NCBI GenBank assembly: GCA_043799675.1
Contig: JAZDNN010000024.1
Coordinates: forward strand, 7,418 to 71,417
Direction of reading: 5' to 3'
DNA: 64,000 nt
Source: Candidatus Aenigmatarchaeota archaeon
Lineage (GTDB): Archaea; Aenigmatarchaeota; Aenigmatarchaeia; Aenigmatarchaeales; JACQIB01
The position numbers and the translations under genes are program-made. The notes beneath the pieces are model-generated. The model made no database searches. It was not told the origin of the DNA and saw nothing but the letters and a program-made list of their open reading frames with translations. Below, piece by piece: positions 4,138 through 61,938 of this stretch. Numbering within the stretch: position 1 is the stretch's first letter; the number at the start of each line of letters is the position of its first letter.

Positions 4138-4223
4138 GGCAGATATCCGACAGAAAAGGATTAAAAGGGCATGGTGCGCCGACCGCGCGGACTGATGTCC
4201 GCTGAGTCGACCTCAGGAAAATT

Positions 4224-4400
4224 TGGTGCGCCGACAGGGATTCTCATAGCACTGCAACCCGAAGGCTGCCAAAACGCCTCTTGGCGCTTCGCGCTCATTT
4301 GAACCCTGGTCATCAGCTATCCTCTTTCTGGTGCAGGTCTTTGCCGTCAGGCAAAGAAGTGCCATGGAAGGCTGAGGTCCTACCACTAGACTATCGGCGC
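4224..4400 (-). tRNA. tRNA-Gly(UCC) with two BHB introns
   Basis: 177 nt.
- Acceptor: GCGCCGA/TCGGCGC.
- D arm: GTCT-AGTGGTA-GGAC.
- Anticodon stem: TCAGC/GCTGA. The loop is CUUCCAA after removing a 46-nt intron at 37/38 (4319..4364; central helix CUUC/GAGG).
- T arm: CAGGG-TTCAAAT-CCCTG after removing a 57-nt intron at 59/60 (4241..4297; central helix UUCA/UGAG, bulges AAU and AAU).
- CCA is encoded. Confidence 0.85.
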
Positions 4401-4430
4401 AGAGAAGCTTTGCGCACGACCCTCAAAAGC

Positions 4431-5123
4431 TTATTGCTTGCGGTAGAAAAGGTACGAGCGGCTCCTGGAAACGTCGGCCCTGTATTCGAGACCTATGTCC
4501 AGTTCCTTCATCGCGGCCTCGCTGACGATGACATTCATGTTGGTCCCGTCGTTGTCGGGCGCGGTCAGGCCGGCCCACTGGCTGTTCTTTATGTTGTCTA
4601 TGACCATCAGCCCGCCGCGGTTCATGTTCTTCGCCATGTTGGCCACGGCAAGCAGCCTCTGGCCGTCGATATCAGTGTCCGACCCGTTCCCTATGTGCTC
4701 GAAAACGTTGAGGCATTCGACATAATGGAAGGGGCCCAATCCGCTCAGGTCGGCGGTGACTATGTCACCCTGCACGCAATTGGTGCGAAGGCCGCCTCTT
4801 TCCCTGGCTTCCTCAAGCGCGGCGGCATCCACGTCCAAAACGTGTACCACGAAATCCTTCTCGTATTCCGCGAACTTCCTTGCAAGCTCCACGTGGCGGA
4901 TTGCGCACGTCTTGTCCTGGGCGGACTTCTTACCGACCCCAACAAGGAGGGCGTTCATCTCTCCACCGACGTTGTGAAGGAAACCGTCCAGATAGTCGTC
5001 CACCTTCAGATGTCTGTCCGGATATGAAACGTCAGAAATCATGTCAAGCGAATGGGGCCTGTAACTTCCCCTCACTTTCTCCTGCCACTCAGGCGTCAGA
5101 AGCGCTGCCATGCTTATATTCAC
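4431..5123 (-). CDS. putative SAM-dependent methyltransferase-like protein
   Basis: 230 aa with a Rossmann-like alternation (VHVLDVD..., NVFEHIG, GGLMVIDN) reminiscent of class I methyltransferases. The glycine-rich motif I is not canonical. Confidence 0.4.
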   Translation of the reverse strand: MNISMAALLTPEWQEKVRGSYRPHSLDMISDVSYPDRHLKVDDYLDGFLHNVGGEMNALLVGVGKKSAQDKTCAIRHVELARKFAEYEKDFVVHVLDVDAAALEEARERGGLRTNCVQGDIVTADLSGLGPFHYVECLNVFEHIGNGSDTDIDGQRLLAVANMAKNMNRGGLMVIDNIKNSQWAGLTAPDNDGTNMNVIVSEAAMKELDIGLEYRADVSRSRSYLFYRKQ

Positions 5124-5882: not shown

Positions 5883-6046
5883 TGGTGGGGTCGGAGAGAT
5901 TTGAACTCCCGTCCGCTGGTATCACCATCGGGCAATCATCACGGTCATATTTGGCCGCTCATCGCTCCAGCAACATTCTGGAGCCAGCTATCCTGCCTGG
6001 CTTTGTCAGACGCAAGACCTAACTTGCGCCTTTAGACTACGACCCC
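5883..6046 (-). tRNA. tRNA-Trp(CCA) with two introns
   Basis: 164 nt.
- Acceptor: GGGGTCG/CGACCCC.
- Anticodon stem: GCTGG/CCAGC, loop CUCCAGA.
- Intron at 37/38: 57 nt (5921..5977).
- D-loop intron after nt 13: about 29 nt (about 6005..6033). The BHB is relaxed with one U-U mismatch, so the boundaries are approximate.
- T arm: GGGAG-TTCAAAT-CTCTC.
- CCA is encoded. Confidence 0.8.
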
Positions 6047-6116
6047 ATTGCTTTCAGAGGACGGGAGTATAAAAAGCGGAGTGGAGCCTTTAGTCTCCAC
6101 GCCACTTGCGAAACCC

Positions 6117-6123
6117 AAAAAAA
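6117..6123 (-). terminator. oligo-T tract downstream of tRNA-Thr
   Basis: T7 run on the minus strand, 8 nt after the encoded CCA of tRNA-Thr. Archaeal RNA polymerase terminates at oligo-T. Confidence 0.4.
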
Positions 6124-6130
6124 GGTGGAG

Positions 6131-6218
6131 TGGAGCCTCGGGAGGGAATTGCACCCTCGACCTGCTGTTTGCTTGGTTGCTTACAAGACAGCCGCTCTTC
6201 TGCCTGAGCCACCGAGGC
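6131..6218 (-). tRNA. tRNA-Thr(UGU) with a 12-nt mini-intron
   Basis: 88 nt.
- Acceptor: GCCTCGG/CCGAGGC.
- D arm: GCTC-AGGCAGAA-GAGC.
- Anticodon stem: GCTGT/ACAGC. The loop is CUUGUAA after removing a 12-nt intron (6170..6181; central helix CUUG/CAAG, bulges UAA and CAA).
- T arm: GAGGG-UGCAAUU-CCCTC, with an atypical G at position 55.
- CCA is encoded. Confidence 0.8.
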
Positions 6219-6253
6219 AAGAGATTTAATAGGCCGAGTCTTAAAAGCTTGGC

Positions 6254-6952
6254 ATGAAAGCAAGGGTCTCGGTCGTGGTTTGCGCAAGGAACGAGGAGAA
6301 GGTCATAGGAGCCTGCCTGGAAGCGCTCAAGAAACAGACGGCCTGCCCGGAGATAATCGTCATTGACGGACACTCGACGGACAGGACCAGGGAGATAGCC
6401 AAGAAGCATGCGGACAGGGTCATCCTGGACAACGGGAAGGGAATAGGGGATGCGAGGAACATCGGCTGGAAGGCGGCAACACACGGAATAGTGGCCTTTT
6501 GCGATGCGGATGCGAGACCGCCGCCGGACTGGGTGGAGAACATAGGAAAGCTGATTGACGACAACGCGGCCGTCAACGGGCCCCTCGTGCCTTACGATGC
6601 GCACAGATTCAGGACAAAGCTCACGATGAAGATATGGACGGACATTTTTTTGAGGGCGGGCTCGGCTGTCAGATACCCTATAGTGTGCGCGGCCAATGTG
6701 GCTTTCAGGAAAAGCATGCTGGAAAAGTATCCGTTCAGGCTCAACGCGCCCACCGAAGACTTCGATGTGGGCAGGAGGATGAGGCACGCGGGCAGGATAA
6801 GGTTCTTCAGCGAACTCCGTATGCCCATATCCGGCAGGAGATTCGAGAACAAGTTCTACAGGCGGACGGCCGTGATTTACCTAAGGAACTATTTCAGGGT
6901 CACGGTAGGGAAGGAAGCGAAGGACTTCGGATATTTCGAAAACAAGGGCTAG
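6254..6952 (+). CDS. family 2 glycosyltransferase
   Basis: 232 aa, with VSVVVCARNEE..., IIVIDGHSTDRT and CDADARPPPDW (DxD), which is the typical GT-A/GT2 fold signature. Confidence 0.8.
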   Translation: MKARVSVVVCARNEEKVIGACLEALKKQTACPEIIVIDGHSTDRTREIAKKHADRVILDNGKGIGDARNIGWKAATHGIVAFCDADARPPPDWVENIGKLIDDNAAVNGPLVPYDAHRFRTKLTMKIWTDIFLRAGSAVRYPIVCAANVAFRKSMLEKYPFRLNAPTEDFDVGRRMRHAGRIRFFSELRMPISGRRFENKFYRRTAVIYLRNYFRVTVGKEAKDFGYFENKG

Positions 6953-10898: not shown

Positions 10899-11151
10899 TG
10901 GTGTCGGGGATGGGGTTTCCAGTGAACTTCGTTCACAGTCAAGCGAACGGAGTTCCGCTTTGAACCCACGACCTCGCGATCTCTCACAGACTCATAGCTC
11001 CGCCGCAAGCGGCAAATTGCTTTTGCCACCTTCGGTGGTTAAGCGAGTCTCAAATCTCATAATCTTGTTATGAGTCGCGCGCTTTTGGTTATCGAATCTA
11101 CCAGGCTTTGCCGGCTGCATGACGCATCATGCGACCATGAGCCACCCCGAC
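10899..11151 (-). tRNA. tRNA(CAU) (elongator Met or Ile2) with four BHB introns
   Basis: 253 nt, with a mature length of 79 nt including CCA.
- Acceptor: GTCGGGG/CCCCGAC.
- D arm: GCTC-AAAGCCTGGTA-GAGC.
- Anticodon stem: CGCGA/TCGCG, loop CUCAUAA.
- T arm: GTGGG-TTCAAAC-CCCAT.
- Intron 1: 11110..11138, 29 nt, D loop after nt 13, central helix UGGC/GCCG.
- Intron 2: 11084..11097, 14 nt, D stem about 22/23, central helix UGGU/ACCA.
- Intron 3: 10981..11068, 88 nt, position 37/38, central helix CUCA/UGAG.
- Intron 4: 10916..10958, 43 nt, T loop 59/60, central helix UUCA/UGGA. Confidence 0.75.
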
Positions 11152-11182: not shown

Positions 11183-11623
11183 TTAGCCAAAGCTCTCGAG
11201 GGGCGGCATTACCCGGGTGTTTCCGTCCCACAGGCCGAAATAGTTCCGGAAGAGCGGGTCATGAACCTTTGGCCTCAGTTTTCCATAATTGGTATGTCTG
11301 AATATCTTTTCGATTGCAGCAGCCTTCGCCGCCCTTTCTTTTATTTTATCCCTGCTGACGTCGAACCCGCAGACGAAGCATTTCAGGTAATAATCCGTCC
11401 CGATGGAATCCTTCCCGGTGAACACCTTCACCATGCCCAGCGGGAATTCCGACGACGGGATGCCCTCGTCCGGCCACCCGTTGGAAGGCTCCGCTTCCAG
11501 CTCGGCGGAAATCGCGTTCTTGACCATGTCGTAAACGATGCCGTTCTTTTCGTGCTTCTTGCCAACGGGCGTCAACGAGCCGCATCTCATGCAGGGGTCC
11601 TTGGTCAGCCAGTACATCAACAT
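11183..11623 (-). CDS. hypothetical zinc-ribbon protein (146 aa)
   Basis: Inner ATG at 11623, because the track ORF start at 11791 runs through tRNA-Lys. It has CMRCG...(N)...CFVCG cysteine pairs. No family recognised. Confidence 0.5.
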   Translation of the reverse strand: MLMYWLTKDPCMRCGSLTPVGKKHEKNGIVYDMVKNAISAELEAEPSNGWPDEGIPSSEFPLGMVKVFTGKDSIGTDYYLKCFVCGFDVSRDKIKERAAKAAAIEKIFRHTNYGKLRPKVHDPLFRNYFGLWDGNTRVMPPLESFG

Positions 11624-11653
11624 CGTTGTGTGAGAAAGGGATAAATCGACGAG

Positions 11654-11850
11654 TGGTGGGCCCAACGGGACTCTCGTAGCACTGCCGCGCTGGCGGCAAA
11701 AGCGCTTTTGGCGCTTCGCGCTCATTCGAACCCGCGACCTACCGGTTTCTCCAGTCACCGAACCAAAATGATGGTTCTCTTTTGGCTCCATTAAGAGCCG
11801 GTCGCTGATGGCTTGGTTTTAACCAATCTACCAGACTGAGCTATGAGCCC
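11654..11850 (-). tRNA. tRNA-Lys(CUU) with three BHB introns
   Basis: 197 nt.
- Acceptor: GGGCTCA/TGGGCCC.
- D arm: GCTC-AGTCTGGTA-GAGC.
- Anticodon stem: ACCGG/CCGGT, loop CUCUUAA.
- T arm: GCGGG-TTCGAAT-CCCGT.
- Intron 1: 11807..11827, 21 nt, D stem about 22/23, central helix UGGU/GCCA, inner hairpin UUGGUU/AACCAA.
- Intron 2: 11747..11791, 45 nt, position 37/38, central helix CUCU/GGAG.
- Intron 3: 11671..11724, 54 nt, position 59/60, central helix UUCG/CGAG.
- CCA is encoded. Confidence 0.85.
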
Positions 11851-11884
11851 GAACTATTCAGAAGTCGCGGAGTATTAAAAGCCT

Positions 11885-13547: not shown

Positions 13548-14774
13548 ATGTACAGTATGAAAAACCCGAATTTGGTTGAGGCGGCCACCAAACCCGATAT
13601 AAGGTTCAACCCGAAGCGCTACACGTATAGTGTAGACCATCATTACTTCAAGATGTGGACGCCTCAAATGGCGTATATTTTAGGGTTCGTGTTTGCGGAC
13701 GGCGGAATAGAAAGGAACAATACGACCCTTGCCTTTGAGTTGCAGATGCGGGATAAAGAGATTTTACGAAAAATAAGAGCGGCTCTAAAATCTACCCATC
13801 CGATTTCAGCGACCAAAGCAGGCGAGTATGTACGATTACGGATCAATAGCCGTCAAATAGTTGACGATTTGAAGAAGCTTGGAGTAACGCATAATAAAAG
13901 CAAAGATTGCACATGTCCAGATATCCCTCAGCGGCTGTTGCCGCACTTCGTGAGAGGGTTCGTGGACGGTGATGGCTGGATTATTCAAAGAACCGGCAAT
14001 AACAGACATGAAATAAGCGCGGGTTTCTGCCATGGTTCTAAGGGGTTCCTTAGATCGCTGGTAAATCAGATTCGAGCGGCGCTTGATATCAAGGCATTTA
14101 ATCTACGGGCTAAGTATAAGGCAACTAGCAGCGGCAAGAGGTCGTGCACATATAGCATAGAATGGTATTCACACAACGCGTCGAAATTTTTAGATTGGAC
14201 ATACAAAGACGCAGACATCTTCTTGAAAAGAAAATACCAAAGCTATCTGAGAAGCAAACGGCTTTTTGAGGAGTTTTCTTCAAAAACGCGGCTTTGGAGA
14301 AAGGTCGAAACCAAACACAGAATGCCGCTAAGAGCCATCCTCGACGGCATGTTGGCCCGGGGTTCGAGCACCTGTCAGATTTCGGGGAATGTCGGAGTTT
14401 CATCGGCTACGATTTACAGGTGGTTAGACAAAACTGACATAAGGAAACCGGTGAAGAGGGTGTCCAAAGCGCCTGTTCTCATGAAGTGCCAGACCTGCGG
14501 TGACATTTTCAGAAAGTTTAAAGAAAACGCCAGCTATTGCTCACTTTCCTGTGCGGCGAAACATATGGCAGTTTCTAGATTGTCTGGGAACAACGTCACG
14601 TGCGCTGCATGCGGTAAACGTGTTTATAGGCCGAACTGGTGGTTTGCGATAAACAGTCGCGCCTTCTGTTCCAATAGTTGTCACGGGAAATGGCAAGAGA
14701 CCCGTTTGGCGACCAATTCGCTGCAACGCTGCAGGACCGATGGCCGCTTCCTTCCTGCTTCAGGGAGGCTATAG
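13548..14774 (+). CDS. free-standing double-motif LAGLIDADG endonuclease-like protein with C-terminal HTH and zinc ribbons
   Basis: 408 aa.
- Two LAGLIDADG motifs (YILGFVFADGG and FVRGFVDGDGW).
- An HTH (QISGNVGVSSATIYRWLDK).
- Two Cys clusters (CQTCG...CSLSC and CAACG...CSNSCHGKW). Confidence 0.7.
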   Translation: MYSMKNPNLVEAATKPDIRFNPKRYTYSVDHHYFKMWTPQMAYILGFVFADGGIERNNTTLAFELQMRDKEILRKIRAALKSTHPISATKAGEYVRLRINSRQIVDDLKKLGVTHNKSKDCTCPDIPQRLLPHFVRGFVDGDGWIIQRTGNNRHEISAGFCHGSKGFLRSLVNQIRAALDIKAFNLRAKYKATSSGKRSCTYSIEWYSHNASKFLDWTYKDADIFLKRKYQSYLRSKRLFEEFSSKTRLWRKVETKHRMPLRAILDGMLARGSSTCQISGNVGVSSATIYRWLDKTDIRKPVKRVSKAPVLMKCQTCGDIFRKFKENASYCSLSCAAKHMAVSRLSGNNVTCAACGKRVYRPNWWFAINSRAFCSNSCHGKWQETRLATNSLQRCRTDGRFLPASGRL

Positions 14775-17688: not shown

Positions 17689-18927
17689 ATGGTTTTAACC
17701 AAGTACGACCGCGGACTGCTGGAAATGATGTACCTGCTCACGAGGAAGCAGAGCCACATGAACCCTTCGGGGGTGGCAAGATACCTTTCCGAGCAGGGCA
17801 TACGGGTGACGGACAGGACAGTGAGGAGATGGTTCAACTACCTCCAGACGCACCGTTTCGACTACTTCCCGTACCCGAAATTCAAGGCGATGGGCCTCAC
17901 TCCCGTGTGGGTTTTCACGGATTTCAACGAAAAAATACTTGAAGCGATTCCACACAAGGTGGCAATAGTAAGCGGATTCGACCTCAGGAACCTCGAGAAA
18001 CGCCTGCTGGGCCTTTACTTGGTTCCGACGGAGCGGCTGAAGGATTTCAGTAAATTGTGGGCGGATGCCGTGGACGCAAAGGCGTTGAGCTTCTGCCAGC
18101 TGCTTGAAGTGGGCTCAATCAACTCCTTCTATTCGCCCTTCCACAAGCTGGTTGACCGTAACGGCATCGCCGACTTCGTGGATGACCACGAGCCGGACAA
18201 TTCCTACTTCACGGACATGCTGCGGAAGAGCACCGGCACGGAAAGCAGTGCCGGGATGAGCCCGCGCATATGCAAAAACCCGCTGATAATCCCGGTAATA
18301 TGGGAATCGTTCAGGAAGAACGCGTCGTCGCAGAAGATATGGAACTCGTTCGAAAGGAGGGCGGGTAAAGCCGCATGGGATTACATAAACAACCCGAAGG
18401 TGAGGAGAGAAAAGAAGACCGGATGCGGGATAAGGCACGTGCAGAACACCATGAGGGAGATGCAGGACAATTTCGGCGAGTTCTTCCAGCAGATGAGAGT
18501 GTCATACAATCCCCTGTACACGCACCACAACAGCATGTTCTATATGCTGCTGAAGCTGAAAAGAAGGGAAGACATCGTGCCGCTCTCGGAACTGCTCTCC
18601 AAACAGGCAATCTCAATCGTGGCGTACCCGCCCAGGGACGCGAAGAGCAGCCTGATGATGTACTACATCCTCACCAATGCCAAGGAAAGCGTCAATATCA
18701 TCAGCGACCTCATACAACCGTACATCGACAAGTCGTTCGACAACAGGATAATCACGGAGGACTTCAAGGGAACGGCGAAATACAGGAACCCGAACATGCG
18801 TCACTGGAAGGAGAACTACATGATGTCCTGCTACCACAAGCTGTTTGACCCCGTGACATGCACGTGGAAGTTCGATACCAAGGCGTACGCCAAAAAGCTG
18901 AACGCTGCCGGCATCAGACAGGGCTGA
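17689..18927 (+). CDS. hypothetical protein with N-terminal winged-helix/HTH
   Basis: Start taken at MVLTKYDRGLLEMMYLL (an alternative ATG lies at 17647). The N-terminal HTH is GVARYLSEQGIRVTDRTVRRWFNYL. The remaining 370 aa or so are unrecognised. Confidence 0.5.
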   Translation: MVLTKYDRGLLEMMYLLTRKQSHMNPSGVARYLSEQGIRVTDRTVRRWFNYLQTHRFDYFPYPKFKAMGLTPVWVFTDFNEKILEAIPHKVAIVSGFDLRNLEKRLLGLYLVPTERLKDFSKLWADAVDAKALSFCQLLEVGSINSFYSPFHKLVDRNGIADFVDDHEPDNSYFTDMLRKSTGTESSAGMSPRICKNPLIIPVIWESFRKNASSQKIWNSFERRAGKAAWDYINNPKVRREKKTGCGIRHVQNTMREMQDNFGEFFQQMRVSYNPLYTHHNSMFYMLLKLKRREDIVPLSELLSKQAISIVAYPPRDAKSSLMMYYILTNAKESVNIISDLIQPYIDKSFDNRIITEDFKGTAKYRNPNMRHWKENYMMSCYHKLFDPVTCTWKFDTKAYAKKLNAAGIRQG

Positions 18928-20335
18928 TGTTCTTCTCCAGCAGCTTGCAGATGAAGACGCGGAAATCCGGAGGAAGTTTTGATAGCATTGTGATAACCGG
19001 GGCACCGCTGGCAACGGTTGATTTCAAAAGGGCAGATGCTATGTGGCTCGGCATTCCTTTGCCCAAAAGAACATGCTCGGGCTGCGCAAAGAACGATTTC
19101 AGGTAATCCAGGGCGACCGTGTGTTCCCTCTCCGTTTCGGTGACCCAGCAGTCCTTCTCTATCCAGCACTTCTTCTCCCTGTAATGCTCCAAAAAGGCCT
19201 TTGCCTGCTTGTGCGACCAGATGGTCGGGCCGACGTGCTTCACCACCCGAGGAACCTGCCACACCTCGAGCTCGAACAGCAGGATGCAATCCTTTCCGTC
19301 CGCCCACACGTCCCTCCTGAGCACGCGGAATCCGCCGTCCGCCAGGAGACCTTCCAGGGAAGCGGAGGCCTTCCGCATCTGCGGCCACAGGGTATCATCC
19401 ACCAGATTCATCGGACGGTCGAACCTGACAAGGTACCAGCGGGTGCGCCTCCTTGCTATGGCTGCAGCCACTTCCTTCACGCTGTACGGCCTGGCGCGGG
19501 GAGGGAAGAACCACTTCTGATGGGGCAACAAAATGAAATCCCTGCACGCCCTGGCAAAAGCAAAGAAGCTGTCTGCCGAGACCGCCGCGGCAACGTTGCG
19601 GTTCGGGTCCACCGGATCTATCACCATCATGGGGGCGCGGAACTTCTCCAAAGCGGCCTGATAATCAACGGCCTTCCGCTCAAGGTCTATCAGGAGGCCT
19701 GCCTCCCATTTCTGCGCCTCGGCCGCGCAGCGGGCAAAACTGCCGTAATGAATGGCAAGCAACTCGCAAAGGTAGCCGGAGAAGCCCTGCGTCTTCACGT
19801 CGGCGCCATAAGCTCCTGCAGCTTTTGCGAAAGCCTTGATGAGCCTCGCGGTGTCGGACAGGTCCGGAGTGAAACGCTTCTTGATATAGGAAACGTGGTG
19901 CGGGGTCCTATCGACCGCGGACTTTATCCTCGACGGATCGGGAACGTCATACGCGGGCACGACGTCTATCGCATAATCCAGCTTTCCCGACTTCATCGAG
20001 CCGCGGAGGTAGGGATGCTCGGCATAGGCTATCTCCCACTTGCCGTTGAGGGTGGAAATTATCTTCTTCGCGAGGTCAAGCCCCTTCTTCTCAAACTCTT
20101 CCCGGCTGACGGCGGGATTGAAAAGCAGGAACAGGTCGAACTCGCGCTTTCCGGCAAGCCAGGTGCCCTTCTCCACCGAGCCGCACATCACGGGCACGGC
20201 CGTGTTTCCCGCTATCTTTGAGGCGACCTGCATCACGGCATTCACGGCCGATTGCATGGCTGACTGGTCGGAAGCGGAGGGGCGTATTTTCTTCAGAACG
20301 GAAGTAAGGACCTTCTCAACCGGCTGCGCTGGCAT
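18914..20335 (-). CDS. cca: class I (archaeal) CCA-adding tRNA nucleotidyltransferase
   Basis: Inner ATG at 20335 gives 473 aa. It has GSVEKGTWLAGKREFDLFLLF (the nucleotidyltransferase G[SG]...D.D motif), EHPYLRG, VDVVPAY and DRTPHHV. Confidence 0.85.
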   Translation of the reverse strand: MPAQPVEKVLTSVLKKIRPSASDQSAMQSAVNAVMQVASKIAGNTAVPVMCGSVEKGTWLAGKREFDLFLLFNPAVSREEFEKKGLDLAKKIISTLNGKWEIAYAEHPYLRGSMKSGKLDYAIDVVPAYDVPDPSRIKSAVDRTPHHVSYIKKRFTPDLSDTARLIKAFAKAAGAYGADVKTQGFSGYLCELLAIHYGSFARCAAEAQKWEAGLLIDLERKAVDYQAALEKFRAPMMVIDPVDPNRNVAAAVSADSFFAFARACRDFILLPHQKWFFPPRARPYSVKEVAAAIARRRTRWYLVRFDRPMNLVDDTLWPQMRKASASLEGLLADGGFRVLRRDVWADGKDCILLFELEVWQVPRVVKHVGPTIWSHKQAKAFLEHYREKKCWIEKDCWVTETEREHTVALDYLKSFFAQPEHVLLGKGMPSHIASALLKSTVASGAPVITMLSKLPPDFRVFICKLLEKNISPV

Positions 20336-20381
20336 ACCTTTAATTGACAGCCTATAAATAAAGGCTAAGGAAAGATTCGGT

Positions 20382-20813
20382 ATGCTGGTCTCGGAAGTGA
20401 TGAACAAGCGGGTCAGGACCTGCCGGAAGGACGACACTGTCCGCCAGGCAGCGCAGGAAATGAACAAGTGGCACATAGGGAGCCTGATCGTGGTGGACGG
20501 CCCGGGAAAGGTCATAGGAATAATAACGGAGAGGGACATCCTGACCGAAGTGGTGGCCAAAGGCCTGCGGAGCGATGACGTGGATGTCAAGGAAATAATG
20601 ACCGGAGACGTGATAGAGGTCGAGTCCAGTGCCACCCTTGAGGATGCGGCCGAGATAATGACACTTAAAAAAATAAAGAAGCTGCCGGTGGTGAGGAAGG
20701 GGCAACTGGTCGGCATCGTGACGGCGACCGACCTGATAATGTACGAGCATTCGCTGATAGAAAAAGTGTCAACCCTGCTGCAGACCGGAAAAAAGGCCGC
20801 TGTGTGCGGCTAA
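20382..20813 (+). CDS. CBS-domain pair protein
   Basis: 143 aa with two CBS motifs (VIGIITERDIL and LVGIVTATDLI). Confidence 0.8.
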   Translation: MLVSEVMNKRVRTCRKDDTVRQAAQEMNKWHIGSLIVVDGPGKVIGIITERDILTEVVAKGLRSDDVDVKEIMTGDVIEVESSATLEDAAEIMTLKKIKKLPVVRKGQLVGIVTATDLIMYEHSLIEKVSTLLQTGKKAAVCG

Positions 20814-47801: not shown

Positions 47802-47921
47802 TAACCCACCATCAGTTTAATTCGCTGCGGCGTAATAGCTCCATAAAAGGTTATAAAGCTATTGGACTGGCGCAAGGCATTTCACGACCGGTCATTTAAG
47901 AGCCGGAAAACAAAGCTGCTC

Positions 47922-48353
47922 ATGCCGAAGTTCAGGTTCATTCCCGAGATAGCGATAGCTGATGTAGCCTTCGAAGCGGAAGGTAAGGACATCAATGAGC
48001 TGTTTGTGAACTGCGCCCTTGCAACCGAGGAATCCATGGTCAACACAAAGAAGGTGAAGCCGAAGGTCAGCAAGACCATAAAGCTGGAAGCGGATGCGCT
48101 GGACAGACTGATGATTGACTGGCTGAACGAGGTGATTTACTACAAGGACGCGGAGGGGCTGCTGTTTTGTGAATTCATCGTCAAGGTATTGCAAAAGGGA
48201 AAGAACTGGACGCTTGAAGCCACGGCAAAGGGCGAAAAGAGGGACCCGAAGAAGCACGAGCTCAGGGCGGATGTGAAGGCGGCGACTTGGCACCTTTTTG
48301 AACTGAAGCAGGAAAAGGGCAAGTGGAAAGCGAGGATTGTAGAGGATATCTGA
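47922..48353 (+). CDS. archease (RtcB activator)
   Basis: ATG at 47922 gives 143 aa. It has IADVAFEAEGKDINELF, KAATWHLFEL and the overall length typical of archease. It lies 1.9 kb upstream of rtcB. Confidence 0.75.
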   Translation: MPKFRFIPEIAIADVAFEAEGKDINELFVNCALATEESMVNTKKVKPKVSKTIKLEADALDRLMIDWLNEVIYYKDAEGLLFCEFIVKVLQKGKNWTLEATAKGEKRDPKKHELRADVKAATWHLFELKQEKGKWKARIVEDI

Positions 48354-50210: not shown

Positions 50211-51795
50211 ATGGAGCAGGAACCTGAAAAGCAGACAGGCAGTCTGCCGAAGGAAATCAAGAAAATCAGCGAGGTCGTCTGGGAACTGCCCACCAGCTAC
50301 AAGAAAGGCATGCGCGTGCCGGCAAGAATATATGCGACCAAGAAGCTGCTCGATGCGATGGACGCGGGAGTGTTCGAGCAGGTCACCAACGTCGCGACCC
50401 TGCCGGGAATCGTCAAGCATGCGTTCTGTATGCCGGATGGGCACTGGGGTATGGGTCAAGTCGCGGCTTGATTCACTCAAATATGGGTTCCCAATCGGCG
50501 GCGTGGCTGCATTCGACCCGAAGGTCGGCGTGATCAGCCCGGGCGGCATCGGGTTCGACATCAACTGCGGCATGAGGTTCGTCACTACCAACCTTACTGT
50601 CAAGGACGTCAAACCCAAGCTGAAAGAACTGGTGGATATCCTGTTCAGGACGGTTCCCGCGGGCGTGGGCGGGGAAGGGTTTGTAAAATTAAGCCGCAGC
50701 CAATTCGACGAAATAATGGTCCAAGGGGCCAATTGGGTCATCGAGCACGGCTACGGTTGGAAAGAGGACACGGAAAGAATAGAGGAGTACGGCTGCATCA
50801 AAGGTGCTGATCCGTCAAAGGTCAGCGACAAGGCAAGGACCAGAGGCATCACGCAGATGGGGACGCTCGGCTCAGGGAACCATTACCTGGAAATCCAGAC
50901 TGCCGAGAAAATTTTCCTTCCCGAAGTCGCAGAGGCATTCGGCGTGAACGAACAGGGGCAGATAGGGGTGATGGTGCACTGCGGCTCGAGGGGGTTCGGC
51001 CACCAAATCGGAACGGATTATCTCAGGATATTCGACATGGCAATGAAGAAGTACAACATCACGGTGCCTGACAGGGAGCTTGCCTGTGCGCCTTTTGCGA
51101 GCCAGGAAGGACAGGATTATTATCACGCGATGGCCTGCGCGGCAAACATGGCTTTTGCCAACAGGCAGGTGATTTTGCACAGGATACGCGAGGCTTTTGC
51201 AAAGGTGTTCAGGAAATCCCCCGAAGACATGGAAATGCACCTGGTGTACGATGTCGCGCACAACGTGGCCAAGGTGGAGAAACACCTGGTCGACGGTCAT
51301 GAAAAGGAACTGGTGATGCACCGGAAGGGGAGCACGCGCTGCTTCGGTCCGGGTAGGCCGGAGATTCCTGAAGCTTACCGCAAGGTCGGCCAGCCGGTGA
51401 TTGTGGGCGGCAGCATGGAAACGGGCAGCTTTTTGTGCGTGGGCACGGACAAGGCTCTGACAGAAACATGGGGAAGCACCATGCACGGCGCGGGCAGAAC
51501 CATGAGCAGGACTTCAGCGAGGAACCAGGGCTCGGGCTTGGCGTTGCAGAAGAAGATGGCCAAGGAAGGGATACTGGTGGAAGCCACGAGCATGAGCGGG
51601 CTTGCAGAGGAAGCGGGCTTTGCCTACAAGGACCTGAACGAAGTGGTCGAGACCATGGAAATCGCGGGCGTGAGCAGGAAGGTCGTTCTGCTGAGGCCTT
51701 TGGGTAATATTAAAGGCACCGCCCGGGCCTCATACAGCCTTTTAGCTTTCCCCATACTTGTCATGGTCTTGGCCTTGATTTCGTCCCTTATCTGA
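50211..51795 (+). CDS. rtcB: RNA-splicing ligase RtcB, coding sequence interrupted by a 31-nt BHB intron (exon 1 50211..50450, exon 2 50482..51795)
   Basis: - Exon 1 (80 aa) ends ...LPGIVKHAFCMPDGHWG.
- Exon 2, in another frame, starts YGFPIGGVAAFD...GGIGFDINCGMR, and HCGSRGFGHQ and further motifs follow.
- Joining at 50450/50482 recreates the universal MPD.H.GYGF.IGG motif.
- Unspliced, the first frame stops at 50469-50471 after 86 aa.
- The C-terminus carries a hydrophobic extension of about 25 aa after the usual ...IKG end. Confidence 0.85.
50451..50481 (+). other. predicted bulge-helix-bulge (BHB) intron within the rtcB mRNA
   Basis: - Central helix: UGGG (50445-48) / CUCA (50476-79).
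- Bulges: GUA (50449-51) and AAU (50480-82), each 3 nt.
- Inner helix: 9 bp, UGGGUCAAG/CUUGAUUCA, with loop UCGCGG.
- Cleavage after the 2nd bulge nucleotide on each side removes exactly the 31 nt needed to restore the frame. Confidence 0.75.
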
Positions 51796-52859
51796 ACGAT
51801 AAGCGGTTCGACCTGTTTCCACCTCGTGATGTTCTTGCCGATTATTTCGAGAATCAATTCCTTTTTGGCCGTTTTCTCGGGATGCCTCAACGGCAGCAAT
51901 TCGAGCATCCGACGGACATCGGCCTTCCTGAAGATTTCTAAGGCGAAATAATCCTTGCTGTATCTTATACTGACCCCATGAGTGTCTCTGCCGTCCCCGC
52001 GCCTGAAAATCCTGTATAGAATTGGATTAAAGCCCTGTTCCCTTAGTTGCCGTTTTATCCTACCAAGCAAGGTTTTATTTTCGGTGCCTATCCGCATACA
52101 ACACTGCAAATTTTCCCTGATTTTCTTGACCAGAAGCGACCCTTCCGCATCGAAGTAGCCGGCCAGGAACGACAGGAAAACATTCCGTTCGGATTCGACC
52201 AACTCTGAAATCAATCGTTTCCTGTTTTCCAGCAAGAGGAAGTCGAAGCTGTTGTCGAGGTCTGCGGATGTCGTCCACATGTAATTTCCAAAAGTTCTGT
52301 TCTTCGCAGGATATGTCCTTACCTTCGCATATCCTTTGAACAGGCTCTCGAAGACATCCAGGAATCCTTCATGAGTCGTGTTGGTTATGGCCCGAATGGT
52401 ATGCTTCGATCTTCTGAAGGCTGTCACATCACCCTCCACGAAACCAACCATGTAAGCCTTTTCTTCATCCTTTCCATCAAAACTTTGCCGTTCATGTTTC
52501 CTGTTTGTCAGCAGGATAGCCTCATCGTTTCCACGCACCCGAAAGCCGTTTTCTTCCAGCACCTTATGCAACGTGCCTTTGGAAGAACCAAATTTCTTGG
52601 CCAGCTTTTTCAACGATATTTTCTCCGTGTCATAAAGTCTCAGAATTTCCGTCACAGGCAGGTGTTTCCTGTGAGACAACGAATGTGCCTGACTGAGATT
52701 CCTTATCGGTATGTCAAGTTTGATGAACCGTTTTCTTACGGCCGACCACGATATATCGTCTCCGAGCTTAACACTCAATATCGCCGCCACTTCTTTGAAC
52801 GTCTTACCGGACGAATAGAGACTCTCGGCTTCCTTCAGGAGTTCGCTGTTCAGCTTCAT
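51624..52859 (-). CDS. LAGLIDADG endonuclease-like protein with N-terminal HTH domains
   Basis: 411 aa. There are two N-terminal HTH-like segments (GKTFKEVAAIL and ISLKKLAKKFGSSKGTLHKVL), then LAGLIDADG motifs (YMVGFVEGDVT and FLSFLAGYFDAEGS). It lies directly downstream of the DGR RT. Its last 172 nt overlap the 3' end of rtcB on the opposite strand. Confidence 0.65.
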   Translation of the reverse strand: MKLNSELLKEAESLYSSGKTFKEVAAILSVKLGDDISWSAVRKRFIKLDIPIRNLSQAHSLSHRKHLPVTEILRLYDTEKISLKKLAKKFGSSKGTLHKVLEENGFRVRGNDEAILLTNRKHERQSFDGKDEEKAYMVGFVEGDVTAFRRSKHTIRAITNTTHEGFLDVFESLFKGYAKVRTYPAKNRTFGNYMWTTSADLDNSFDFLLLENRKRLISELVESERNVFLSFLAGYFDAEGSLLVKKIRENLQCCMRIGTENKTLLGRIKRQLREQGFNPILYRIFRRGDGRDTHGVSIRYSKDYFALEIFRKADVRRMLELLPLRHPEKTAKKELILEIIGKNITRWKQVEPLIVQIRDEIKAKTMTSMGKAKRLYEARAVPLILPKGLSRTTFLLTPAISMVSTTSFRSL

Positions 52860-52914: not shown

Positions 52915-53991
52915 CTAATCATGCAGAATACATCCAAAAATATTATTATACCTTCCAGCGAGCGCATTTCTCAACCTGAACGTGTCGCCCTGCGCCGCAT
53001 AGGCCATCCAGCCCTCAAGGCTTTTCGCAGCCTGTTCTGCCGAAATCTCACCGGATTCGTACTGCAGTCTGAGTGCCGTCATCCTTTTTTCGAGCTTCAG
53101 CAGGTTCCTCCTTTTTGGAATCCTGTAGTGGTAGAACACCCTGAAGCCGAGCAACGATATCCCCTTATGCAAAGGGTAGACCTGCGATTTTTCCTCATGC
53201 AACTCTAGCTTTAACCGTTGTTTGAGGAACCCGTTTATCCCGCTCCTGAACTGCATCAGCGCGGCCTCAGACCTGTCCAGAATCACGAAGTCATCTACAT
53301 ACCGGAGATAGAACCTTGCCTTAAGCACGTGCTTCACGAAATGGTCCAGCTCATTCAGGTAGACGTTCGCGAAGAACTGGCTCGTCTGATTGCCTATCGG
53401 CATCCCCTTCGGCAGGGCAGGGTCGTTGTTCGACAGGATTTTCCGTACCAGCCAGAGCACGCTTTCGTCCCTTATTTTTCTCCGTATGATGCCAATCAGG
53501 ACATCGTGGTCGACGCTCGGGAAATAGTGCCTTATGTCGGCCTTCAGTGCATAGCCGACCACCATGTTGTTGTCCTTCGCGCCGTGCACCAAACGGCCGT
53601 TCCCGGAAACCTTTCGCTTGAAGCAATCAAACCTGTCCAATGCTGCCAGGCCGCCCTTTCCCTTCCTGTTGGCGTAGCTGTCGTGGATGAACGTTTTGTC
53701 GAAAATCGGTTCGAGCACGTTGCATAACGCATGATGGACAACACGGTCCCTGAAATGCGAGGCATGAATTACCCGTGTCTTGGGGTCGCGGATGATGAAC
53801 CGTTTCAACGGGCGCGGCGAATACGTACGATTTTCAAGCTCAGTTTTCAAATCTGCCAATTCGCCATCAAGATTAGCTTCGAATCTTTTGACATACCATT
53901 TCTTCGACTTGCCCTTCCTCGCCTTTCTGAATGCCAGCAAAAGGTTCTCTGGCGAGCAGACCTTTCCGTAAAGGTTGTCAAATGTTTTCAA
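52915..53991 (-). CDS. DGR-type reverse transcriptase
   Basis: 358 aa with an apparent TTG start. RT motifs 1-7 include RVIHASHFRDRVVHHAL, the DGR-diagnostic PIGNQTSQFFANVYLNELD (I/LGxxxSQ) and the catalytic YLRYVDDFVIL. It has no maturase or endonuclease domains, and it sits 30 nt downstream of the TR. Confidence 0.85.
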   Translation of the reverse strand: MKTFDNLYGKVCSPENLLLAFRKARKGKSKKWYVKRFEANLDGELADLKTELENRTYSPRPLKRFIIRDPKTRVIHASHFRDRVVHHALCNVLEPIFDKTFIHDSYANRKGKGGLAALDRFDCFKRKVSGNGRLVHGAKDNNMVVGYALKADIRHYFPSVDHDVLIGIIRRKIRDESVLWLVRKILSNNDPALPKGMPIGNQTSQFFANVYLNELDHFVKHVLKARFYLRYVDDFVILDRSEAALMQFRSGINGFLKQRLKLELHEEKSQVYPLHKGISLLGFRVFYHYRIPKRRNLLKLEKRMTALRLQYESGEISAEQAAKSLEGWMAYAAQGDTFRLRNALAGRYNNIFGCILHD

Positions 53992-54162: not shown

Positions 54163-54436
54163 CTCGTCCGTGTTCCAATCCGACCTGACGGAAGGGTTTC
54201 GGTAGCCTCTCCACCGACATGACACCGCGGCTTCAATCTTCGGGAACCTACCAACTGAAACCGCTGAATTTAATGGCACAAGCATTCGGACGGCATGAAA
54301 TGCCATCGCACCATCTTGCGCTCTATGGAAAGGCGTATAGCGCGGGCCTTTGCCGGGAGAATGAAATACCCGCCCCCCGATTGGGAAGGAAAGAACTCTG
54401 TCATGCAAAAATTGAGGGACGAAACGATTTATGCGC

Positions 54437-60846: not shown

Positions 60847-61938
60847 TTATAACAATAATTTCTTCAGTTCCTCGTAGCCTGCATCCGTCTTTATCGCCGT
60901 GCAATCGAAATGGGTGCGGACAGCCAGCCTTCCGCTTTCATGCAACCTGAGCATCACATCTTCCGTGCCCTTTGCGGGCACCTTGAGCTTCGAAGCCAGA
61001 ACGTGCAGGTCCCAGTAGAAGGGAGGGGCATCAGCCTCTTCCATAATCTGGGAAAGCATCTTCGCCTCTGCCGGTTTTTGTTTGAAGTCCCTGCCTTTGA
61101 TATCATCGAGGACTTCATTGACGAATACCTTGTCCTGTATCGGACCCAGATAGATGGGGCCGGCGAACTGCCAGTTTTCAATGGGTTGTGAACCTGTGCG
61201 ATATTCGCCTGTCTTTGGATTGTAACTCACGAATTTGAACTTCTTCAGCAGACCTTCTATCTCGCCTGCATGCCCGATCCTTCCGTAGCAACGGAAATAA
61301 TGGCGCGTGGAATGGGAAAGCACCGGAACAAAAGCCCTGTCCCGGCGGGCGAACGTGAGGATTATGAACGAAACGAGGGTCCTCAGTCCCAATTCGGAAT
61401 AGAACGGCGCGCCCTTGAAGGTGACGATGCCGTACTTGCGGAAACAGGCGGCCGGGGCGGAGCCGCTCAGCGGGGCGGTGTCGGTGGCAGTGACGGCCAC
61501 GAAGCCCTTGTGCCAGACGCTGCGTGCAGCACCATCCAGGAAAAGATTGGGGGAACCGAACGGGTCGATGTCGATGAAATCGAACAGACGGTCATGGAAC
61601 AGCCTGTTCGCATCAACACAGGACGTCCTGCATCTTTTCTGAAGTTTGTTGAGCGTGATGTTCTTTTTGATTACTTTGACCGCGAACGGGTTCTTGTCGT
61701 TCAGCACTACCTCCTTCAGTCCTTCGACTTCGGCTGCATAGCGGAGGCCGCGCATCCCGGCGGCTGCCAATGCGTCACAGACCGTGAGCTTCTGCCTGCT
61801 GATTCTCTGCCAGGTCTGAAGGACGGAAATCGAGATGTCGCGCTGGAACTCGGCCGCGGGATTGTAGAACGCGCCCTTGCCGAGCGCAGGGGAGGCCCAG
61901 ACTTCGACCTTCCCTTCCCGGACTTTCTCAACACTCAT
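60847..61938 (-). CDS. trm1: tRNA (guanine26-N2)-dimethyltransferase Trm1
   Basis: 363 aa. Motifs are FYNP..EF.RD, DALAA.G.RGLRYA.E, IDIDPFGSP..FLD.A and TATD.A.L. Confidence 0.85.
   Translation of the reverse strand: MSVEKVREGKVEVWASPALGKGAFYNPAAEFQRDISISVLQTWQRISRQKLTVCDALAAAGMRGLRYAAEVEGLKEVVLNDKNPFAVKVIKKNITLNKLQKRCRTSCVDANRLFHDRLFDFIDIDPFGSPNLFLDGAARSVWHKGFVAVTATDTAPLSGSAPAACFRKYGIVTFKGAPFYSELGLRTLVSFIILTFARRDRAFVPVLSHSTRHYFRCYGRIGHAGEIEGLLKKFKFVSYNPKTGEYRTGSQPIENWQFAGPIYLGPIQDKVFVNEVLDDIKGRDFKQKPAEAKMLSQIMEEADAPPFYWDLHVLASKLKVPAKGTEDVMLRLHESGRLAVRTHFDCTAIKTDAGYEELKKLLL

Follow-up and report, generated by a model that had tools for sequence, protein, structure and literature searches.

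A tRNA-Lys(CUU) gene with three bulge-helix-bulge introns, and intron presence and absence among its close relatives, in an apparently Aenigmatarchaeota-like archaeon

The window analysed here, a 64,000-nucleotide (nt) stretch of contig JAZDNN010000024.1, carries on its minus strand, at 11850..11654, a tRNA-Lys(CUU) gene whose four colinear exons of 23, 15, 22 and 17 nt are separated by three introns of the bulge-helix-bulge (BHB) type, giving a locus of 197 nt unspliced and 77 nt spliced. All positions are those of the window, and L001, L002, L004, L005 and L007 denote orthologous loci from metagenomes that are described below. Read from 11850 to 11654 on the minus strand, the locus runs GGGCTCATAGCTCAGTCTGGTAG / ATTGGTTAAAACCAAGCCATC / AGCGACCGGCTCTTA / ATGGAGCC...CTGGAGAA / ACCGGTAGGTCGCGGGTTCGAA / TGAGCGCG...CTACGAGAG / TCCCGTTGGGCCCACCA, with the following parts.

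11654..11850, minus strand: complete tRNA-Lys(CUU) gene (ARAGORN on the spliced sequence; chance control).
11828..11850, minus strand: exon 1, tRNA positions 1-22, with the acceptor 5' strand, the D-stem 5' strand, the D loop and G22 (identical in L001, L005 and L007).
11807..11827, minus strand: intron 1 at 22/23 in the D-stem 3' strand, 21 nt, AUUGGUUAAAACCAAGCCAUC (BHB; missing in L001/L002).
11792..11806, minus strand: exon 2, positions 23-37, with the D-stem 3' strand, the anticodon-stem 5' strand and the anticodon CUU (ARAGORN on the spliced sequence).
11747..11791, minus strand: intron 2 at the canonical 37/38 site, 45 nt (BHB; homologous introns in relatives).
11725..11746, minus strand: exon 3, positions 38-59, with the anticodon-stem 3' strand, the variable loop, the T-stem 5' strand and the T loop to A59 (ARAGORN on the spliced sequence).
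11671..11724, minus strand: intron 3 at 59/60 in the T loop, 54 nt (BHB; missing in L007; paralogue in tRNA-Gly).
11654..11670, minus strand: exon 4, positions 60-76, with the T-stem 3' strand, the acceptor 3' strand, the discriminator A and CCA (ARAGORN on the spliced sequence).
11183..11623, minus strand: downstream protein gene of about 145 amino acids (aa), the only supported part of the open reading frame (ORF) 11183..11791, with its start at 11623 or 11617.

Excision of 11807-11827, 11747-11791 and 11671-11724 leaves the 77-mer GGGCTCATAGCTCAGTCTGGTAGAGCGACCGGCTCTTAACCGGTAGGTCGCGGGTTCGAATCCCGTTGGGCCCACCA, which ARAGORN called tRNA-Lys(ctt), the identity originally predicted from the letters of the window, with an acceptor stem of 7 base pairs (bp), a D stem of 4 bp and anticodon and T stems of 5 bp each. 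The D stem pairs GCUC with GAGC, the anticodon stem ACCGG with CCGGU and the T stem GCGGG with CCCGU; the D loop contains GG and ends in A21, the variable loop is AGGUC, the T loop is encoded as TTCGAAT (UUCGAAU), the discriminator is A and the CCA end is encoded. The unspliced locus gave no match by ARAGORN, nor by Rfam at the gathering threshold or at E<=10. A split or permuted tRNA gene was ruled out, the four exons being colinear within 197 nt, and so was a self-splicing group I or II intron, which has a core of hundreds of nt, as the inserts measure 21-54 nt and have no Rfam match at E<=10. On inspection, no RUGAUGA or CUGA boxes of a C/D-box guide RNA were seen in the three introns.

An uninterrupted ORF of 202 aa with an ATG at 11791 (11183..11791) runs through the gene, and the region might be read as the coding N-terminus of that ORF, with a merely coincidental likeness to a tRNA. 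Only two homologues of the downstream protein were found among 5.8 billion proteins, however, and these are 135 and 145 aa long, start with MRCG and MYWLT and align only from residue 59 of the 202-aa ORF, so that their starts map to about 11617-11623 in the window, downstream of the tRNA 3' end. In L001, moreover, stop codons break the upstream frame of the protein gene, and relative to L001 the 21-nt D intron of the window is an indel flanked by exon DNA that is 100% conserved. We regard the coding interpretation as scarcely credible; the earlier judgement that the N-terminus of 11183..11791 is spurious is confirmed by the lengths and starts of the homologues and by the stop codons in L001. 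Two other long ORFs without a Pfam match, 6032-6787 (minus) and 4281-5027 (plus), likewise cross tRNA genes (Thr/Trp and Gly, respectively) and are probably spurious or over-extended in the same way. An exact look-up of the L37e neighbour protein returned no record.

In the archaeal BHB register, the 5' exon ends with a four-nt helix strand H followed by two bulge bases, and the intron ends with the complementary strand H' of 4 nt, again followed by two bulge bases. In all three introns of the tRNA-Lys gene the 4 nt located 3-6 nt before the 5' junction pair at four of four positions with the 4 nt located 3-6 nt before the 3' junction, and the two 3-nt bulges fall in register, with both junctions after the second bulge base. 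The three motifs are composed as follows (predicted cut sites are shown by a caret).

22/23 (D stem): central helix UGGU/GCCA; bulges AG^A and UC^A; outer helix of 1 bp (C17:G24); inner helix of 5 bp closed by a UAAA loop.
37/38 (anticodon): central helix CUCU/GGAG; bulges UA^A and AA^A; outer helix of 5 bp (anticodon stem); inner helix unstacked on the central helix.
59/60 (T loop): central helix UUCG/CGAG; bulges AA^U and AG^U; outer helix of 5 bp (T stem); inner helix of 5 bp after one mismatch.

The interior of the 59/60 intron folds as two hairpins. Judged by sequence alone, each junction could be shifted by one base, and the BHB register is satisfied only at the positions listed. The D-intron motif had been described as near-ideal and perfect, which overstates it, because the outer helix consists of the single C17:G24 pair and the motif is a relaxed one. 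The inner hairpin, taken before to have 6 bp and a 2-nt loop, actually has 5 bp and the UAAA loop. A strict hBHBh' motif requires an outer and an inner helix that each have 2 bp or more and stack directly onto the central one, and none of the three introns conforms to it.

As a chance control, we performed a SPLITS-like enumeration on both strands of the window, in which seeds (a 7-bp acceptor-like pairing with T8 and NCCA, 100-260 nt apart) were collected, up to three segments obeying the central-helix rule of the BHB were excised from each, and ARAGORN was asked for a full-length tRNA. The 50 seeds of the window gave such a tRNA only at real loci, namely Lys, CAU and Gly (the last with two alternative 3' ends), and none of the 46 acceptor-like decoy seeds did.

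Orthologous loci were obtained from the contigs of the two homologues of the downstream protein and from a scan of metagenomes for the exon pattern. They represent three independent loci (L001/L002, L005/L004 and L007), in all of which the tRNA-Lys exons are 100% identical to those of the window. In L001/L002, where the neighbouring protein is 70% and geranylgeranyl reductase (GGR) 84% identical, the D intron is missing and GGTAGAGCGACC runs on without a break, precisely as predicted for the spliced product (GGTAG^AGCG joined), while introns 2 and 3 are kept. L005/L004, with a neighbouring protein of 87% identity, keep all three introns; the D intron of L005 is a 21-nt variant, AUUGAUUAAAAUCAAGCCACU, in which a G-C pair of the inner helix is replaced by A-U in a double change. 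In L007 the 59/60 intron is missing, with TTCGAATCCCG / GGTTCGAATCCCG contiguous at the predicted junction, a 20-nt D intron occupies the same site as in the window, and a diverged intron of 46 nt lies at 37/38. The L007 gene (160-332, plus strand) has in addition a 30-nt intron at 43/44, the boundary between anticodon stem and variable loop, which is missing from the window and forms a near-ideal motif, in which the ACCG/CGGU helix is perfect and the inner helix has 9 bp. Intron 2 is homologous in L001 and L005, with 2-3 substitutions, and none of the loci found lacks the 37/38 intron. Within the central helix of the 59/60 intron, the strand contributed by the intron reads CGAG in the window and, in L001, UGGA, and the three changed positions still pair with UUCG (4/4). 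The gene span, the three intron positions and the six junction coordinates of the original prediction proved exact, since the BHB register fits them and the introns absent from L001/L002 (D stem) and L007 (59/60) are missing at the predicted joints.

Searches of genome contigs with the exon pattern and with the geranylgeranyl reductase protein gave no matches; viral contigs contained no exon match and a single chance match of an intron 17-mer in an unrelated contig. In one further metagenomic locus, L003 (Logan SRR9617119, 181-346), the Lys 3' exon is preceded by a 5' part resembling tRNA-Asn(GTT), the two being connected by a near-identical copy of the shared 59/60 intron. We rejected it as a split or hybrid gene, because its acceptor and T stems are unpaired and the JGI contig L004/L005 with the same downstream gene has a normal Lys gene; the contig is probably a chimera produced by assembly across the repeated intron, and therefore the same 59/60 intron family would also be present in the tRNA-Asn of that organism.

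Comparison of the loci suggests that introns turn over between close relatives with identical exons. By parsimony, the D intron probably predates the split of the lineages and was precisely lost in that of L001, whereas the 59/60 and 43/44 introns would be lineage-specific. The same comparison bears on the idea that the locus is a decaying pseudogene which has accumulated insertions, is neither expressed nor spliced and is replaced by a functional Lys(CUU) gene elsewhere. That standard finders miss the gene would fit such decay, but all 77 exon positions agree in four diverged lineages with neighbouring proteins of only 70-87% identity, the inserts stand exactly where a BHB can form, substitutions keep the pairing, a promoter-like box is conserved and four other tRNA genes within the same 8 kb are built alike, so we hold a pseudogene to be highly improbable. 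With great confidence we interpret 11654-11850 (minus) as a functional archaeal tRNA-Lys(CUU) gene that contains three introns of the protein-spliced BHB type, at 22/23, 37/38 and 59/60.

Several observations weigh against this interpretation. The outer helix of the D intron has only 1 bp and the inner helices of introns 2 and 3 are unstacked on their central helices. When the 197-nt precursor is folded with all three BHB motifs its energy is -74.2 kcal/mol, 11.5 above the unconstrained minimum free energy (MFE) of -85.7 kcal/mol, and the MFE fold shows no BHB motifs; we do not take this as a refutation, because the energy model penalises bulges and the enzyme binds the motif locally. Furthermore, in the blind enumeration ARAGORN also accepted several other splicings of the tRNA-Lys locus, and for this reason the choice of junctions rests on the orthologues. 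The covariation count for the D intron (96.7% of cells paired, with one compensatory pair) comes from 3 sequences and has no statistical power or weight, 180 of 500 shuffles doing as well, so that the evidential weight rests on the precise presence and absence of introns. Finally, no match to the archaeal splicing endonuclease EndA (tRNA_int_endo) was found among the roughly 50 window ORFs scanned against Pfam.

The local fold of the D intron also leaves room for a variant in which the tRNA-Lys gene is real and its D-stem insert is cut out at junctions different from 22/23, or after a prior splicing step, with the register CUGGU/AUCAG serving instead. It is this register that the local MFE fold uses, at -11.2 kcal/mol against -10.6 kcal/mol for the BHB, making it slightly (0.6 kcal/mol) more stable; the short outer helix and the ambiguity of the junction by one A (22/23 or 23/24) point the same way. 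The CUGGU/AUCAG register has no BHB geometry, however, and only the 22/23 register sets both junctions after the second base of 3-nt bulges around a 4-bp helix. The product that L001 requires, GGTAGAGCG, is obtained by cleavage at either 22/23 or 23/24. We consider the variant very unlikely and retain cleavage at 22/23. Relaxed BHB motifs are known substrates only of EndA types with broad specificity (PMC5829648), and because all three motifs are relaxed rather than strict hBHBh', an enzyme of that kind would be expected in this organism.

Upstream of the gene, and elsewhere in the window, lie a promoter-like element and two genes that would act on the tRNA in trans.

11873..11880, minus strand: TATA-box-like element TTTTAATA, its last base 23 nt upstream of tRNA position 1 (read from the sequence).
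50332..51795, plus strand: RtcB, tRNA-splicing ligase, in trans (Pfam PF01139, E=3.6e-157).
47862..48353, plus strand: Archease, in trans (Pfam PF01951, E=7e-39).

The TTTTAATA box and its flanks are conserved in L001, AT-rich boxes lie at a similar distance upstream of the other tRNA genes, and we read the element as a putative archaeal promoter. Archease is a known cofactor of RtcB, and together the two form the ligation half of the archaeal tRNA splicing pathway, which is thus encoded in the window. From these elements the following pathway may be proposed. Transcription from the gene's own TATA-like promoter would give a pre-tRNA of about 200 nt, in which a 4-nt stretch near the 3' end of each intron would pair with the four exon nt just before the 5' junction, that is with U-G18-G19-U20 of the D loop, C32-U35 of the anticodon loop and U54-G57 of the T loop. 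Both junctions would then be exposed in 3-nt bulges, EndA would cut after the second bulge base, and RtcB with Archease would ligate the exon ends (2',3'-cyclic phosphate and 5'-OH). Since the three motifs lie on separate parts of the molecule, they might be formed and cut independently.

The host appears to be an Aenigmatarchaeota-like DPANN archaeon, as judged from a single marker of moderate identity: the closest named matches of the ArgRS from the window are Candidatus Aenigmatarchaeota, at 55-58% identity, a phylum of the kingdom Nanobdellati (DPANN). A class I CCA-adding enzyme (18914-20716, minus) and Trm1, an m2,2G methyltransferase (60847-61938, minus), are also encoded here, so that Archease, RtcB, the CCA-adding enzyme and Trm1 share the 64-kb window with five tRNA genes that encode their own CCA. 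Two free-standing ORFs of about 410 aa with LAGLIDADG_3 and HTH domains lie at 13548-14774 (plus) and 51624-52859 (minus), the latter overlapping the 3' end of rtcB on the opposite strand, and a reverse transcriptase ORF (RVT_1; 52915-53991, minus) adjoins an Rfam RT-16 RNA match at 54197-54373 (minus; 57 bits, above the gathering score).

The five tRNA genes lie between 4.2 and 11.9 kb and have 11-12 predicted introns in total: one in Thr, two each in Trp and Gly, three in Lys and three or four in the tRNA with the anticodon CAU. One of them has an intron related to one of the Lys gene.

4224-4400, minus strand: tRNA-Gly(UCC), with introns of 46 nt at 37/38 and 57 nt at 59/60.

Its 59/60 intron (4241-4297) is a paralogue of the tRNA-Lys intron at the same tRNA position. 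The first 17 nt of the two are identical (TGAGCGCGAAGCGCCAA) and their 3' ends are similar (...GCAGTGCTA(C/T)GAGA(G/A)), while in the Gly intron a different hairpin, with a UUCG loop, takes the place of one of the interior hairpins. The central helix is compensated, with G57:C in Lys and A57:U in Gly. Transposed intron families are recognised by similar introns in tRNAs of different identity, which is what the Lys and Gly introns are, and on this criterion the 59/60 intron of tRNA-Lys belongs to an intron family with members outside tRNA-Lys. As a separate observation, the last 12 nt of tRNA-Gly (GTCGGCGCACCA) recur without a mismatch at 4172-4183 (minus), 40 nt downstream of that gene; the GCGGAC/GTCCGC hairpin ahead of this repeat is not a T arm and no sensible alternative tRNA results. 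This copy of GTCGGCGCACCA could be a remnant of integration (an att-like duplication) or of rearrangement.

The 22/23 site is used as well in the tRNA(CAU) gene (10899-11151, minus), where the intron reads TGGTAG^ATTCGATAACCAAA^AGC, with a UGGU/ACCA helix and bulges AG^A and AA^A. The earlier remark that this 14-nt intron has the same position and the same UGGU strand as the D intron of tRNA-Lys was borne out, both introns lying at 22/23 and UGGU being paired to ACCA in tRNA(CAU), and the common strand follows from the shared position, because the conserved U-G18-G19-U of the D loop comes with it. Comparison of AUUGGUUA... in Lys with AUUCGAUA... in CAU shows a match at five of the seven unconstrained bases, the rest being fixed by pairing with UGGU, and the stretch is a very short one. 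Since 22/23 is a listed recurrent non-canonical intron site (PMC4090602), its recurrence here is consistent with a preferred insertion site for the Lys and CAU introns, without establishing one.

Two of these neighbouring genes have further peculiarities. For the tRNA(CAU) gene, 253 nt unspliced, the best solution comprises four introns, at 13/14 (29 nt), 22/23 (14 nt), 37/38 (88 nt) and 59/60 (43 nt), and gives a 79-nt product called tRNA-Met(cat) by ARAGORN, with a 4-bp D stem; the three-intron alternative, with one D intron of 48 nt, has a poorer D arm, in which the D stem has 3 bp and the 6-nt D loop lacks A21. Published archaeal tRNA genes have up to three introns (PMC4033280, PMC8450103), a maximum that four introns in tRNA(CAU), on this best solution, would exceed. 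The tRNA-Trp(CCA) gene (5883-6046, minus) contains a 29-nt D-loop intron, with an 8-bp inner helix and a central helix paired at three of four positions, and a 57-nt intron at 37/38, whose GUGAUGA and CGAUGAG box-C-like motifs are reminiscent of the C/D guide RNA in euryarchaeal tRNA-Trp introns; in Rfam, the locus gave only a weak match to tmRNA (22 bits).

For annotation, the locus is a case in which standard finders overlook a presumably essential tRNA and a protein ORF has been extended across it in error, and the genomes of this lineage would seem short of tRNAs unless intron-aware tools are used. The orthologues provide a clean natural experiment on the gain and loss of BHB introns, with identical exons and introns present or absent at 22/23, 43/44 and 59/60. 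Going further, and as a tentative proposal that we think somewhat less probable than its negation, the Aenigmatarchaeota-like DPANN lineage might be a second, independent hot spot of tRNA intron proliferation, equal to or above the Thermoproteales, in which the 59/60 family (Lys, Gly and probably Asn) and the 22/23 family (Lys and CAU) are actively spreading and being precisely lost between relatives with identical exons. If this were true, the lineage would be a natural system for studying the movement of BHB introns.

The BHB tRNA intron is already well known as a type of element, and the tRNA-Lys gene is a well-supported new example of a known phenomenon rather than a new element type. The nearest parallels come from the Thermoproteales (Crenarchaeota), for which multi-intron tRNA genes have been described, as have introns at 22/23 and at 59/60 and the presence of similar introns in more than one tRNA (PMC4033280, PMC4090602, PMC8450103). 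Those genes, for example in Pyrobaculum and Thermofilum (Sugahara et al. 2008 as cited in PMC4033280; tRNAscan-SE 2.0, PMC8450103), share with tRNA-Lys up to three BHB introns per gene with relaxed motifs, the combination of a canonical 37/38 intron with non-canonical D- and T-arm introns, and the fact that naive tRNA finders miss them; 22/23 and 59/60 are both among the published non-canonical sites (PMC4090602). In contrast, the host here is apparently a DPANN archaeon and not a crenarchaeote, and in the literature that could be searched we came upon no account of multi-intron tRNAs for Aenigmatarchaeota. A 59/60 intron common to Lys and Gly(UCC) also recalls the transposed tRNA intron families of Fujishima et al. 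2010, as relayed in PMC4033280 and PMC4090602, although the present family comprises only two genes of one 64-kb window and one probably chimeric contig (L003), and homology of the 22/23 mini-introns of Lys and CAU cannot be established.

A similar difference between close relatives has been reported at population level for Caldiarchaeum subterraneum (PMC3293823), in which an intron at one position of a tRNA gene is present in some closely related environmental genomes and missing from others, the gene being otherwise identical; that case concerns another lineage and other sites. Among DPANN archaea, disrupted tRNA genes occur together with broad-specificity EndA, of the epsilon2 type in ARMAN-2 and of an alpha4 type with an L3 loop (PMC3239211, PMC3488258, PMC5829648), and enzymes of broad specificity have been described for both DPANN and TACK (PMC5829648, PMC3239211). 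Kaneta et al. 2018 reported increased tRNA gene disruption in DPANN lineages and predicted undetected disrupted tRNA genes where the tRNA set looks incomplete (PMC5829648). The tRNA-Lys locus fits that prediction, while Aenigmatarchaeota lie outside the genomes analysed there (PMC5829648); it extends heavily intron-disrupted tRNA genes to what appears to be an Aenigmatarchaeota-like DPANN archaeon and would imply a broad-specificity splicing endonuclease in this lineage as well.

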